A stretch of 64,000 nt of DNA, taken from IMG/VR virus record IMGVR_UViG_2939127364_000001. One strand, given 5' to 3'. Numbering within the stretch: position 1 is the stretch's first letter; each line of letters opens with the position of its first letter. Origin of the DNA: a virus. Its lineage: Duplodnaviria > Heunggongvirae > Uroviricota > Caudoviricetes. Made by a program: the position numbers and the translations under genes. The notes beneath the pieces are model-generated. The model saw only the letters and a program-made list of their open reading frames with translations, did no database searches and was not told the DNA's origin. Below, piece by piece: positions 18,266 through 47,688 of this stretch.

Positions 18266-18308
18266 AAAACAACTTGTTTACTGCATCTGCTAACCAACTT
18301 GTTTTCTA
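18266..18308 (-). promoter_or_regulatory. Two copies of the AAAACAA-N-TTGTTTT palindrome upstream of the terminase small subunit gene
   Basis: AAAACAACTTGTTTACT and AACCAACTTGTTTTCTA, 40-80 nt upstream of the TerS start; a short hairpin AGAGCGC..GCGCTCT lies between them and the ATG. Confidence 0.45.
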
Positions 18309-18321
18309 GGTTGTTTAATTA

Positions 18322-18420
18322 GGTCTGGGCATGTCTTATTAAGCCTGCTTCCGTATATATTTAATAAGTTACTTATTATTTATATATACAGAAGCAGGTC
18401 TTTAAATAAGCTCCCAGACC
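18322..18420. repeat. Long imperfect inverted repeat (about 100 bp), copy 1
   Basis: GGTCTGGG...GCCTGCTTCCGTATATAT..TTAATAAGTTACTTATTATT..ATATATACAGAAGCAGG...CCCAGACC; between the end of the ParB/ABC operon and the TerS promoter region. Confidence 0.6.
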
Positions 18421-18422
18421 GA

Positions 18423-18689
18423 TTACATCACCAGTAACTTCGCTTTGGCTCGACCTAAAGTGGTTAACCCAAGAGTTCGGCGGTGATAGCGATTGTCACT
18501 GCGTTGGCGCGTATGCCCTTTCTCCACCAGCCCCTTTTTTATCAGAGCGCGAATTGAGAACTGGATACTTTGCTTGGTTGTCTTGTACGGCAAAACTTCA
18601 AGCAATTCGTCCAGATCAAGTAAATGACCTCGCTCATAACCGAGATTGAGCGTTTTGATAATGTCCTTTTGTTTATCGGTTAACGTCAT
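18423..18689 (-). CDS. Hypothetical small protein, last gene of the ParB/ABC/GNAT operon
   Basis: 88 aa basic ORF, 10 nt downstream of the GNAT-like gene. Confidence 0.3.
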   Translation of the reverse strand: MTLTDKQKDIIKTLNLGYERGHLLDLDELLEVLPYKTTKQSIQFSIRALIKKGLVEKGHTRQRSDNRYHRRTLGLTTLGRAKAKLLVM

Positions 18690-18698
18690 GGCAAATCC

Positions 18699-19598
18699 TT
18701 ATGCCGGTAAAGCAATTTCTAACGGTTTATCCAAAGGTTGTTTGTCGAATGCCAGCAGTGGCAGCGTGTCAGGCAGCCGACGACCAAAGTCAGGGTTTCG
18801 GTACACACCATACAACGGAGACGTAAAGCTCAGGTTGTGAATGTCCTTGAGCAGCTTCACAATGCTGGCCTCGTCCACCAGACTGTCGGCAATGTCCTGA
18901 ATCGTCGTGCCACGATTCCGCCCAGCTTTTGCCAGGGAACTGTTCTTGTGGTAGTCCGCTACCAGATCACGCAGTGCACGGCGACGACGAGACTCGCTCA
19001 TTGCGAACAACTCTTTGACGATCGCCTCGTTATCACCCGGGTCGGAACGGAAATGGCGCTGGAATACACGCAGTGCACTTTCATAGCTCTTCGGTCGCTC
19101 AGGGCGGATGAACTTAAACCCTGCTTTCATGGCGAAGGGATTGTATTTGCTCATCGAGGACTGGATCTCAATGATTGGCCGGTCGTGCATCCTGCTAACC
19201 AGGTTAATCATTCGATAGGAGACGCCGACACCGCGGTACTGAGTGTCCACAACGGAACGGCTGATCACCGCAAAGTTGTTGTTCACGTACCGCCCCCAAT
19301 ACTGGTTGGCCACGGTGGTATTGGTGGTTGGCTTCAGCTTAGGAAACATGCGATGGCGAGGCGCCAGCAGCAGTTTCGGGTAAGCCATAACCACGACGCC
19401 CACCAGCCGGTCGTCCAGTTCGCAGCGATAATACGTTGGCGCAAACGGCTTACCATCCGTCTTGTAGTGCAGCGACTTCAGCGCGTGCCAGTCTTCAACC
19501 GTGCCTTTGGTAACGGTCATACGCTCCAGAAAGTCCAGATGACGCGGGAACTCTTCCGGGCGGTAGCGTTTGATGATGATGCCTGTCATGTCGATCAC
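18699..19598 (-). CDS. GNAT-like acetyltransferase-domain protein with C-terminal extension
   Basis: LVGVVVMAY strand, QYRGVGVSYRMINLV (R-x-x-G-x-G/A motif A-like) and NPFAMKAGFKF (motif B-like). Confidence 0.45.
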   Translation of the reverse strand: MIDMTGIIIKRYRPEEFPRHLDFLERMTVTKGTVEDWHALKSLHYKTDGKPFAPTYYRCELDDRLVGVVVMAYPKLLLAPRHRMFPKLKPTTNTTVANQYWGRYVNNNFAVISRSVVDTQYRGVGVSYRMINLVSRMHDRPIIEIQSSMSKYNPFAMKAGFKFIRPERPKSYESALRVFQRHFRSDPGDNEAIVKELFAMSESRRRRALRDLVADYHKNSSLAKAGRNRGTTIQDIADSLVDEASIVKLLKDIHNLSFTSPLYGVYRNPDFGRRLPDTLPLLAFDKQPLDKPLEIALPA

Positions 19599-19849
19599 CT
19601 ACGCTCGATATTGGCATTGATGAAGTCCAGGCGAAGCGATTCCATCGCCCCAACCATGACGTATGGACGCCCACCGTTATGCCAGCAATCCAGCACACTG
19701 CCGTCGTTGTTGATCATCAGCAGTGCCAGGCTCTGGCTTTTGCCTTCTCTGGCGTACTGGAGTGCTTCTTCCAGCAGGCGGATGACTTCAACGTTGTTGT
19801 TGTCAGCCTCTTTCGATGGCTTCAGCTCTACGATCTTCAAATCAGGCAT
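19595..19849 (-). CDS. Hypothetical protein
   Basis: 84 aa ORF whose start overlaps the ABC ATPase gene stop and whose stop overlaps the GNAT-like gene start. Confidence 0.3.
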   Translation of the reverse strand: MPDLKIVELKPSKEADNNNVEVIRLLEEALQYAREGKSQSLALLMINNDGSVLDCWHNGGRPYVMVGAMESLRLDFINANIERR

Positions 19850-20480
19850 ATTCCACCTTCACGCGTTCTTTGTAGTGCTTGGTGATCTGCATATCCGGGC
19901 GCAGCGCGTTCTTCAGGTCTTCGTGAGTCGTCGCCACCATTACCGTCGCACCAACCTTTCGAGCGGCACGCTGGAGGTTAGATGCCACAACCTGAGCGGT
20001 TACACGGTCGAGAACAGCGCCGAACTCGTCAGCAGCCCACACTTTAGCGCCTGACTCAATCAGTTTGGCAATCTTGAGACGATATTTCTGACCGTCTGAC
20101 ATTTCAGAAGGCTTGCGAACAAACAGATATGCATCGTTCAGACCAGCCATAGATAACAACCCAAGCGCATCACTGGTAGTTTTGCCCAGTTGGTCAATGA
20201 CGTTAACCTCATTATCGAAGGTAAAATCATCGATGGAGGCTACAGACAGCCCTTCATCCTTCATCTGTCGTTGCAACTCGCGCAGCACAACGGATTTGCC
20301 GGATCCGGATTGGCCGGTGATGTACACCACATCGCCCTGCTTCACTTCCAGCTCCAGATTGTCGTAAAGCGTCCACTCTTTTTCGTCCAGACCAAGCCCG
20401 AACGACTCAGCGATTTCCAACGTGCGCGTGGTTTTATTTACGCGTGTCTGAAACGATACGTTGATGATGTATTTGCTCAT
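19842..20480 (-). CDS. Soluble ABC-type ATPase
   Basis: Walker A GQSGSGKS, ABC-signature-like SDGQKYR, Walker B VWAADEF, H-loop-like TTHE; no membrane domain. Confidence 0.7.
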   Translation of the reverse strand: MSKYIINVSFQTRVNKTTRTLEIAESFGLGLDEKEWTLYDNLELEVKQGDVVYITGQSGSGKSVVLRELQRQMKDEGLSVASIDDFTFDNEVNVIDQLGKTTSDALGLLSMAGLNDAYLFVRKPSEMSDGQKYRLKIAKLIESGAKVWAADEFGAVLDRVTAQVVASNLQRAARKVGATVMVATTHEDLKNALRPDMQITKHYKERVKVEYA

Positions 20481-46926: not shown

Positions 46927-46944
46927 GTGTTTTTCCTAATGCTT

Positions 46945-46959
46945 AAACAAGTTGTTTTC
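46945..46959 (-). promoter_or_regulatory. Palindromic motif copy (AAACAAGTTGTTTTC)
   Basis: About 25 nt upstream of the ATG of the 46357-46926 gene; shares the extended flank TTGTTTTCTTATTGGC with other copies. Confidence 0.5.
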
Positions 46960-47042
46960 TTATTGGCTTTATTGTGATGTGGCATAAAAGGGGAGCAAGC
47001 TAAACGTAAAGGTGCAAACTCTCTATTTCGGTCAACGAAACA

Positions 47043-47063
47043 CAAGGGCCATTTGGCCCTTGT
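47043..47063 (-). terminator. Terminator after the TerB-like / small membrane gene pair
   Basis: AAGGGCC-ATTT-GGCCCTT hairpin followed on the minus strand by a T-rich run. Confidence 0.5.
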
Positions 47064-47065
47064 CA

Positions 47066-47224
47066 TTAACACGTTGCTTTACGGACTAGCGGATAAGCGA
47101 AGTAGATCGCCAGACCAATGAGGACGCCATCAGAAATGACAGACATCATCTTTCCCGTAAAATCCACCAACACCGCTATCACCAGAAGAGCAATGACGGT
47201 CACAAGCCGGAATCTCTCAAGCAT
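47066..47224 (-). CDS. Small hydrophobic membrane protein, translationally coupled to the TerB-like gene
   Basis: Hand-translated 52 aa MLERFRLVTVIALLVIAVLVDFTGKMMSVISDGVLIGLAIYFAYPLVRKATC; ATG overlaps the TerB-like stop (TAATG); hairpin terminator follows. Below the track length cutoff. Confidence 0.3.
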   Translation of the reverse strand: MLERFRLVTVIALLVIAVLVDFTGKMMSVISDGVLIGLAIYFAYPLVRKATC

Positions 47225-47649
47225 TAGAGATAAGCATCCAGTGACAACTGAAGCGCCTGGGCGATCTTTTTCAGCGCCTGCTCTTCTGGTTCATCAATGC
47301 CGTCCTGGTCGGCAATATCAAGGCACAGACACAGTACATCTACTGCATCATCAGTCCCGGCCACATCCGCCAGCTCACGTAAAGCCTGGGCATTAGCACG
47401 GCGCGGTGAGGCTTCGTATTGAGCGCGGATATTGGCGCTCATCTGGGCAATCTCACCAGCAAAAGGAGAAAATGCAGGCAGAGCTGCAATTGTTTTCTCA
47501 AGAATGGAAATTTCTTTTGCATCGCATGTACCGTTGGCATAGGAGATCATGTACGCGCCCCACACGGTGGCCTCAACCGCATCACGGTTCTCCATTTTTT
47601 TGACTTCGATAACAGCTTTACGAGTTTTCTTTTTGAAGAAACCTAACAT
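47224..47649 (-). CDS. TerB-like (tellurite-resistance TerB fold) protein
   Basis: 141 aa all-helical with paired acidic patches (DAKEISILEK..., DQDGIDEPEEQALKKIA) typical of TerB domains; palindrome copy upstream. Confidence 0.45.
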   Translation of the reverse strand: MLGFFKKKTRKAVIEVKKMENRDAVEATVWGAYMISYANGTCDAKEISILEKTIAALPAFSPFAGEIAQMSANIRAQYEASPRRANAQALRELADVAGTDDAVDVLCLCLDIADQDGIDEPEEQALKKIAQALQLSLDAYL

Positions 47650-47672
47650 GTGTTTTCCTTTTGTTATTTGTC

Positions 47673-47688
47673 AAAACAAGTTGTTTTA
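47673..47688 (-). promoter_or_regulatory. Palindromic motif copy (AAAACAAGTTGTTTTA)
   Basis: About 30 nt upstream of the TerB-like gene ATG. Confidence 0.5.

Follow-up and report, generated by a model that had tools for sequence, protein, structure and literature searches.

A short palindrome recurs upstream of minus-strand genes in a 64,000-nucleotide (nt) stretch of DNA from a tailed virus (IMG/VR record IMGVR_UViG_2939127364_000001), here called the window, which by sequence identity and gene order is about 60% of an approximately 108-kb SSU5-type phage-plasmid of Escherichia coli. Judged from its sequence and placement, the palindrome is most likely the DNA site of a global regulator. The more specific reading preferred here, with a confidence that is no better than even, is that the palindrome is a double-stranded DNA operator for a sequence-specific, probably dimeric, regulator of the SSU5-family phage-plasmids, and that it belongs to a repeated cassette in which it holds promoters down.

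A Conserved 13-bp Dyad

When the word GAAAACAANTTGTTTTC is searched for with at most three mismatches, 13 matches are found in the window, while 0.93 ± 1.08 are expected from 100 dinucleotide-preserving shuffles, of which none gave more than 4. A symmetrised position weight matrix (PWM) has 13 hits of at least 12 bits against 1.0 expected, where it should be kept in mind that the matrix was trained on the same strong sites (19.6-24.8 bits) that it scores. Ten strong copies and one moderate copy (32466-32482, 16.8 bits) lie upstream of minus-strand genes, and weak matches at 23481, 25993 and 35363 fall inside open reading frames. In one half of the SSU5 genome all 16 PWM sites are intergenic, though annotated intergenic DNA makes up 16% of the sequence (P ~2e-13). 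Both the frequency of the motif and its positional bias are far above chance in these tests.

An earlier note on this DNA, made from the letters alone, had described a recurrent 17-bp palindrome before at least nine minus-strand genes, and in this it was right. All of its ten strong sites exist, with 17-mer coordinates that differ from ours by 0-2 nt, and the moderate copy was absent from its list. The copy that it called weaker, at 45314-45330, is present but scores 8.3 bits and amounts to a half-site only, and the copy that it called partial, near 32677-32693, has the left half only (CCAATAAGAAAACAAC, minus strand, 32680-32695). The repeat is real, but the conserved dyad spans just 13 bp, AAACAA-N-TTGTTT. 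Among 44 pooled sites read in the coding orientation, only positions 3-15 of the 17-mer are dyadic, and positions 1-2 and 16-17 are not mutually complementary. Within the 13-bp core the conservation per position is 84-100%, with no switch at any pair to another Watson-Crick type.

The outer dinucleotides come in two versions that are the reverse complement of each other: B sites read GA[core]AA and A sites read TT[core]TC. The flanking bases of B are explained by the Shine-Dalgarno (SD) sequence that follows (…TTTAA-GGAG), and those of A by the terminator tail that precedes. The asymmetric flank, TTGTTTTCTT-R-TTGGC, which several sites had been said to share, is also real. It is the reverse complement of gCCAAyAA-GAAAACAA, and this is the predicted start region of the repeated promoter cassette described below.

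Two further observations concern the palindrome itself. Relatives are referred to by the labels of the retrieved stretches, with L005 and L008 for SSU5 and L011 for Klebsiella pJN2-26. The central trinucleotide is inverted between two 95%-identical genomes, at 31270-31286 in the window and at 33608-33624 of L001 (PhiR41_1), where the forms are GAAAACA-TGT-TGTTTAA and GAAAACA-ACA-TGTTTAA; this is a signature of hairpin-templated mutation at a quasi-palindrome. In contig IMGVR_UViG_3300045988_137243 (L047), from a divergent lineage, an extra half-site stands before each A-type palindrome (250-285, 780-815 and 1910-1945), and the arrangement GTTGTTTTC-TTAACGCC-TTAAACAAGTTGTTTTC, with three half-sites in a row, suggests higher-order binding.

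Two Promoter Registers

The sites are phased to extended -10 elements, defined as TGn followed directly by a TATAAT-like hexamer whose second base is A and whose sixth is T. When a pooled set of 51 sites is scanned over ±60 nt, strict elements of this kind are confined to offsets -26/-25, with 12 sites, and +26, with 7, where the expectation is 0.006 per offset. TGaGATAAT, TGcGATAAT and TGgTATTAT are examples from these 19 cases. Relaxing the criteria raises the count to 14 at either of the two offsets, where 0.7 would be expected, and places 33 of the 51 sites in a register. A plain scan with the -35/-10 consensus shows nothing out of the ordinary (8 against 12 expected), because these promoters lack a -35.

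The two registers correspond to the two flank versions, as is seen from the anatomy of the 44 sites. Before a B site stands the conserved string TGnGATAAT-AA-nnCCA-nnAA, and 0-6 nt after it comes the SD. Before an A site stands a GC-rich hairpin, the stems of which differ among sites (GGCCAC, GGCTAT, GGCCAT, GGCAGT), and exactly 17 nt after the site comes the -10. If transcription starts at the conserved CCA, about 7 nt past the -10, the centre of B falls at about +14, just before the SD, and that of A at about -38; 51 bp separate the two. With the terminator upstream of them and the -10 downstream, A sites are in a predicted untranscribed spacer. Complete cassettes, with A, promoter and B in succession, are found at 34079-34146 in the window and at orthologous or paralogous places in SSU5 and Klebsiella.

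DNA Site or RNA Hairpin

The earlier note allowed for two kinds of element: an operator for a dimeric DNA-binding regulator, or a conserved hairpin in the 5' untranslated region (5'UTR) that serves as a translational operator or processing site. Consider what a hairpin would predict. The palindrome alone folds at -0.7 kcal/mol. In five natural 5'UTRs that were folded it lies outside the minimum-energy structure, and these leaders are no more stable than their shuffles (z-scores from -1.4 to +1.2). The six core pairs of the 44 sites hold no compensatory change, and the coding-strand mismatches in the same sites, 2 G·U and 4 A·C, give no excess of G·U. The 64-kb window has no match at gathering score in Rfam 15. 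A-type copies are upstream of the predicted -10, so that not all copies lie within transcripts of the regulated gene. An autonomous RNA hairpin or processing site is rejected on the folding energy, the lack of covariation and the position of the A sites, with the Rfam result beside them.

A double-stranded DNA operator is favoured for these reasons, and also because, outside the terS leader, the sites of distant relatives are all of the A type. The dyad is kept base by base, is continuous through a 1-nt centre and is phased to promoter elements, which is what a dimeric DNA-binding protein requires. Of the two kinds of element first proposed, the operator for a dimeric regulator is thus the better supported, and the conserved leader hairpin is not supported.

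Distribution in the SSU5 Family

The palindrome belongs to the whole family. SSU5 has 20 copies of the 13-mer with at most one mismatch, where 0.24 are expected; Cyrano has 4 copies in one 40-kb stretch and 12 in another (its second half; 0.38 expected); and Klebsiella pJN2-26 has 17 PWM hits in 50 kb. The sites stand at orthologous positions in SSU5, Klebsiella, Cyrano and metagenomic relatives. In PhiR41_1 the motif also precedes nrdB, parA, the replicative helicase gene, a cobT-like gene and others, and from the relatives it follows that the regulon reaches, through these same four genes, beyond the interval that had been reported for the window. In a scan of 2.9 million viral contigs, those with multiple copies were found only at the SSU5-like size of about 60-112 kb, three of them separately confirmed as SSU5-like, and other contigs had single, chance-like hits.

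A distant relative, L016, is instructive. Its large terminase subunit (TerL) is 87% identical to that of the window and its regulatory block is very different, and within 20 kb it carries the identical palindrome seven times or more. Every copy outside the terS leader is A-type, between a terminator and TGgGATAAT, and a second divergent lineage is arranged likewise.

Sites in the Window

The sites and the elements next to them are as follows, all on the minus strand.

18247-18264, minus strand: GC hairpin GAGCGC-N6-GCGCTC, followed by a T-rich run (18237-18246), between the palindromes and the ATG of terS (18226).
18265-18281, minus strand: proximal terS palindrome GTAAACAAGTTGTTTTA, its centre 25 bp from that of the distal one; pJN2-26 of Klebsiella has just one palindrome at this place.
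18290-18306, minus strand: distal terS palindrome GAAAACAAGTTGGTTAG (coding strand), in the terS leader/promoter region; kept in SSU5 (L005 54-70) and 80 relatives.
28386-28402, minus strand: B-type operator (putative) before a 160-aa gene (27885-28367), with TTGACG at 28436-28441, a 15-nt spacer and GATAAT at 28415-28420; the geometry is unchanged in the orthologues of SSU5 (L008 41224) and Klebsiella (L011 29079).
29883-29899, minus strand: putative A-type operator after a terminator (29908-29933) and 17 nt upstream of TGtGAAAAT (29860-29868), gene 29451-29825; the orthologues in SSU5 (L008 40361) and Klebsiella (L011 28536) are paired with a B site 51 bp downstream.
30786-30802, minus strand: putative B-type operator, with the extended -10 TGgTATTAT at 30815-30823 (offset -26) and an adjoining SD, GGAG; gene 30465-30776.
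31270-31286, minus strand: putative B-type operator, with the extended -10 TGcGATAAT at 31298-31306 (offset -25); gene 30930-31259.
32466-32482, minus strand: the moderate copy, ATAAACAACTTATTTTC, upstream of a 90-aa gene (32164-32436); orthologous sites at L008 37439 in SSU5 and L011 25866 in Klebsiella.
32680-32695, minus strand: degenerate B site, with the start region CCAATAA and only the left half-site GAAAACAA.
34079-34146, minus strand: complete cassette, with A at 34130-34146, 17 nt, TGaGATAAT at 34107-34115, 11 nt, B at 34079-34095, SD and a DUF5983 gene (33768-34067); the A and B centres are 51 bp apart, at offsets +26 and -25, and the cassette recurs in SSU5 (L008 35018/35069) and in the viral contig L036.
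45314-45330, minus strand: weak copy, little more than a half-site, with gene 44824-45300 downstream; in SSU5 the orthologous gene (MNTALSIID…) is preceded by a full B site (L008 29167).
46943-46959, minus strand: putative B-type operator, with the -10 CACAAT at 46971-46976, before a 189-aa gene (46357-46926); orthologues at L008 28444 in SSU5 and L011 18507 in Klebsiella.
47672-47688, minus strand: putative operator before a TerB-like gene (47224-47649; borderline TerB domain, E = 4e-5); Klebsiella orthologue at L011 17792.

The genes downstream of the sites are mostly without a Pfam match, with DUF5983 and the borderline TerB as the exceptions. The set has the look of a regulon, as had been proposed: it stands upstream of co-oriented genes that include the terminase operon, the TerB-like gene and small genes of no assigned function.

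The stem in the terS leader is distinct from the palindromes. It shows compensatory changes across lineages (GAGCGC/GCGCTC, GAGCAT/GTGCTC, GGCGTC/GATGCC, GGCGC/GCGCC), and a T-run follows it in the window, Klebsiella pJN2-26, SSU5, L163 and L184 and not in L207/L209 or L210. This hairpin may be a leader terminator, an attenuator or a stability element for the late operon.

Proposed Repression and Expression in a Lysogen

To see how such a site could act, consider a complete cassette. In the proposed order there is a terminator hairpin, the A operator, 17 nt, the extended -10 (TGnGATAAT), 11-12 nt with the predicted start (CCA), the B operator, the SD and the gene. An operator at about -38 would cover the -35 region, another would lie at about +14, and a promoter may have either or both; a protein bound at either position would block RNA polymerase. 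About twenty promoters, spread over the ~108-kb genome, could be controlled in this way, and they belong to small accessory genes, the TerB-like gene, terS, nrdB, parA, the replicative helicase gene and the cobT-like gene. One protein would then hold many otherwise constitutive promoters down together.

We infer that the extended -10 elements are promoters in use and that the regulatory effect is repression. Repression is favoured because one assumption covers all sites. A protein at +14 can only obstruct, and one over -46 to -30 would obstruct as well. B-only promoters have good core elements, as exemplified by TTGACG-N15-GATAAT (28403-28441) and TGgTATTAT (30815-30823).

RNA sequencing (RNA-seq) of the LF82 lysogen puts 12 of the 15 Cyrano genes behind the palindrome at prophage background mRNA (PMC9928086 S1 table), and the orthologous promoters in the window and in SSU5, where inspected, have near-consensus -10 elements despite this background expression. 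In the same table a rise in coverage from 6 to 21 at the helicase gene, and from 7.6 to 12.9 at nrdB, does no more than hint at starts there.

Candidate Regulators

Three proteins of the element are candidates for reading the palindrome.

18423-18689, minus strand: 88-aa protein (phrog_900 = CYRAN_123), directly upstream of the terS operators, with a weak winged-helix match (LexA_DNA_bind, E = 0.07); candidate DNA binder.
23470-23748, plus strand: 92-aa protein (phrog_1466 = CYRAN_117), with a ribbon-helix-helix (RHH)-like N-terminus; candidate DNA-binding repressor expressed in the lysogen.
25521-26042, plus strand: FljA homologue (PF03614, E = 1.8e-68), with a predicted tandem Hfq/Sm fold; candidate RNA-level reader of B sites.

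As binder in DNA, the 88-aa candidate is favoured by conservation and the 92-aa candidate by expression in the lysogen. The 88-aa protein is 74% identical in L016, and its putative recognition helix is identical there. The N-terminus of the 92-aa protein aligns to CopG in the RHH register (hhalign E = 0.013), and neither a sequence search of the PDB nor Pfam gave a hit that would make it an RHH protein. Its gene, which comes after that of the helicase, is among the most highly expressed Cyrano genes in lysogeny (PMC9928086 S1 table). In its first codons there is a weak palindrome-like word, GAAAACAACTTATTGCC (23481-23497), and SSU5 has no corresponding site in a search for the 13-bp core with at most one mismatch.

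The FljA homologue is predicted with high confidence to consist of two tandem Hfq/Sm-like domains without a helix-turn-helix; the model made with a multiple sequence alignment is good, and the AlphaFold2 model made from the single sequence is unusable (mean predicted local distance difference test score, 36). The gene is present in every SSU5-like relative examined whose stretch covers the region, elements of the non-flagellated Klebsiella included. Distant homologues in metagenomes are on contigs too short for context, and the top-ranked results of a literature search contained no link between FljA and the Sm fold.

Other binders were considered and rejected. The CI-like repressor CYRAN_45 is an unlikely binder: its own divergent control region is without the AAACAA palindrome and carries a different dyad, GGTAAGnnCTTACC, and SSU5 keeps the palindromes although neither an integrase nor a CI-like gene is annotated at the corresponding position. 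ParB/parS is rejected since the half-sites of chromosomal parS are in opposite order, and the boxes of IHF, KdgR, IclR, Cra, PurR, NrdR and LexA differ in half-site or spacing.

The second palindrome, GGTAAGnnCTTACC or TAAGyrCTTA, with loci at 21842-21861 of the window and 22604-22684 of L004, stands in the divergent control region of the Cyrano CI-like repressor and recurs between the parB-like operon and the UvsW helicase gene, where the promoters are divergent. It is probably the operator of the lysogeny repressor.

Alternative Explanations

Several points weigh against repression through a DNA operator. The promoters are predictions from consensus and geometry. In the lysogen parA (50) and, less so, the helicase gene (21) carry a site and are expressed all the same, and the 88-aa protein is nearly silent, at about 3 fragments per kilobase per million (FPKM) above the floor (PMC9928086 S1 table). 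Where the promoter has no -35, a site at -38 would suit an activator just as well. B sites adjoin the SD, and the FljA homologue, from a family that represses translation through the 5'UTR, is a core gene. None of the candidate binders fits cleanly: the RHH assignment is weak, with hhalign values against CopG and ParG close to those of controls, and the putative reading strand of the 92-aa protein changes from CQV to CHL in some lineages that keep the same palindrome.

From the -38 position it is a short step to a lytic-phase activator or antiterminator. The 88-aa winged-helix protein, made from a CI-controlled operon, would then bind the palindromes and switch on transcription from promoters without a -35, or make it terminator-resistant, and the terS operon with its leader hairpin would be among the targets. 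The gene lies directly upstream of the terS palindromes, the promoter region of its operon carries the putative CI-like operator, and it is silent in the lysogen, as the palindrome-bearing genes are. A sites stand in the place of a -35, and terS has a poor -10 (CCTAAT), which is followed by the conserved hairpin and, in most lineages examined, by the T-run. Where the 88-aa protein keeps 74% identity and the same putative recognition helix, the FljA homologue and the 92-aa protein have fallen to 27% and 34%, but this argument is partly biased because the 80 loci were retrieved with peptides of the 88-aa protein itself. At the B-only promoters, where the core elements are good, a site at +14 obstructs and does not activate. 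A centre at -38 is, moreover, 3-4 bp off the usual class II position, and the winged-helix assignment is weak. On balance this reading is unlikely; at the A sites and at terS a protein may nevertheless act as activator or antiterminator.

The B sites suggest instead an operator at the RNA level. The FljA homologue would bind the transcribed B copies at +6 to +22, where an A-rich GAAAACAA is followed by a U-rich UUGUUU beside the SD, and would repress translation and destabilise the mRNAs, on the model of Salmonella FljA at the fliC 5'UTR. The Pfam match of the protein is strong, members of the FljA family work post-transcriptionally on fliC mRNA (PMC2652032), and the homologue is transcribed in the lysogen (PMC9928086 S1 table). 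In the phage collection the full-length gene is found only in SSU5-like elements, those of non-flagellated Klebsiella included. The SD begins 0-6 nt after the palindrome in B sites, and upstream of the SD of E. coli fliC the 5'UTR contains a CAA…TTG element, though this leader shares nothing more with the palindrome. Among de-duplicated sites from the 80 related loci and the divergent lineages, FljA alleles at least 60% identical to that of the window go with 49 B and 25 A sites, and alleles less than 45% identical with about 9 A-type sites and one ambiguous AB site, which has -10-like hexamers at both offsets, none being purely B-type. Such an association is what one would obtain if B placement were tied to the FljA homologue, but it comes from two or three lineages and is confounded with phylogeny. 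A sites, which are not transcribed from their own promoter, share the same sequence, and identity of the homologue can drop to 27-42% with no change in the palindrome. The target of canonical FljA, which is 33% identical, is a different one. An exact dyad through a 1-nt spacer, with neither hairpin stability nor covariation, is not what an Sm protein that binds single-stranded RNA needs. On balance, control by FljA at the RNA level is rather unlikely, and we think it quite unlikely that the homologue is a global post-transcriptional regulator that reads B copies on about a dozen mRNAs, with the same 13-nt word used as DNA and as RNA.

A host factor conserved in the Enterobacteriaceae could also read the palindrome, and this would agree with a motif that is identical in E. 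coli, Salmonella, Klebsiella and metagenomic elements while the phage regulators of the antisense block vary widely. We know of no enterobacterial regulator with this consensus, those of KdgR, IclR, Cra, PurR and IHF being different in half-site or spacing, and the SSU5-like size of the multi-copy contigs in the viral collection speaks for a factor of the element; a host reader is very unlikely. Finally, the repeats could be mainly boundaries of recombination or module shuffling, that is, mobile terminator-promoter cassettes like the PeSL of T4-type phages, without a dedicated binding protein. Whole cassettes of terminator, promoter and start region do stand before many small variable genes, and the loop inversion at one site indicates that palindromes are mutationally active. 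Conservation of the 13-bp core is, however, much stronger than that of the surrounding cassette; the core persists at orthologous sites in different genera and is also found outside cassettes, at terS, parA, the helicase gene and nrdB. The spread of cassettes accounts for the multiplication of sites and not for an invariant core, which makes shuffling alone highly improbable.

Relation to Known Systems

If the palindrome is a DNA operator, its logic is that of a known kind of phage and plasmid global operator regulon, and not a new kind of element. One such case is C1 of P1, where one regulator of a phage-plasmid has many 17-bp operators over about 100 kb, at separate operon promoters. The dispersion of operators over many promoters of a phage-plasmid is the same, but the P1 operator is asymmetric (ATTGCTCTAATAAATTT), while the SSU5-type site is a 13-bp perfect dyad in two exact registers at extended -10 promoters, and no C1 homologue was found among the annotations inspected. 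In mycobacteriophage L5, gp71 silences the lysogen through dozens of 13-bp intergenic stoperators, which are asymmetric and orientation-dependent and block elongation. Some SSU5-type sites lie, like these, within operons (nrdA/nrdB and the helicase gene), but their core is a perfect dyad phased to promoters, and their flanks occur in both orientations, A being the reverse complement of B. KorA and KorB of RK2 (IncP) coordinate partition, replication and accessory genes through short palindromic operators; the site before parA fits that logic, with different sequences and proteins.

CopG of pMV158 and Mnt and Arc of P22 are small dimeric or tetrameric RHH repressors that bind symmetric elements of 13-21 bp over the -35 region of one promoter each. 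The 92-aa candidate aligns, weakly, in the RHH register of CopG; the SSU5-type site serves, unlike these, many promoters. The T4-type PeSL cassettes place a terminator stem-loop and a strong sigma-70 promoter before many small genes in a plastic region and have no operator palindrome, whereas the invariant dyad is the most conserved part of the SSU5-type cassette and is also found at core genes. Salmonella FljA reportedly represses translation at the fliC 5'UTR. The element encodes a homologous protein and has B sites in the 5'UTR beside the SD, but the E. coli fliC leader is without such a palindrome and A sites are not in the 5'UTR.

In the literature searched, no description was found of gene regulation in SSU5-like elements, of this motif, of the two-register architecture or of a family-wide regulon. 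SSU5-like phage-plasmids are common; they include pHCM2 of S. Typhi, Cyrano of the adherent-invasive E. coli strain LF82, and many elements of Klebsiella, Enterobacter and E. coli, some with resistance genes. For these the motif yields a map of about twenty putatively co-regulated promoters, an architecture (extended -10, operators at -38 and +14) and three candidate regulators. It helps to predict the accessory and cargo genes that are kept silent in the plasmid state and could be used for engineered induction or reporters. The predicted tandem Hfq/Sm fold bears on the mechanism of flagellar phase variation, and if the homologue is a post-transcriptional regulator, Salmonella and E. coli would have domesticated their flagellar FljA from a family of phage-plasmid regulators.

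The Element and Its Neighbouring Genes

That the window belongs to an SSU5-like phage-plasmid follows from sequence identity and gene order. By megablast against phage records, window positions 10000-34200 are 95-97% identical to Escherichia phage CMS-2020a and PhiR41_1 at 83-85% coverage; the identity is 81% with Salmonella phage SSU5 and 80% with Klebsiella phage-plasmids. An annotated relative has the same gene order: tail and head genes, terL, terS, the parB-like/ABC operon, then the antisense block, which opens with the UvsW-type helicase, small genes of no assigned function, metG and mrp, and the UmuD-like gene. The metG/hsd block is not host DNA between islands; the whole window is one phage-plasmid. 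By comparison with relatives metG and mrp are conserved phage genes and not host genes, and in the metG/mrp/hsd set only hsdMSR (38649-44765) is an insertion, at a place where relatives have ea22/eaa-type genes.

The methionyl-tRNA synthetase and the Mrp/MinD-like ATPase are encoded at 34229-37520, and the LF82 lysogen expresses the Mrp-like gene, as it does few others, at about 92 FPKM (PMC9928086 S1 table). The insertion is a type I restriction-modification operon, in which hsdM, hsdS and hsdR are assigned by size and order; the genes of relatives at this place are ea22-, eaa- or eae-like. The UmuD-like gene (37557-37946) is without a palindrome, and its PhiR41_1 copy keeps one about 100 nt upstream. 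Outside the window, CYRAN_43, a 184-aa hypothetical gene beside the tRNA/integrase region of Cyrano, is expressed in the lysogen at about 7000 FPKM, far above the rest of the element (PMC9928086 S1 table).

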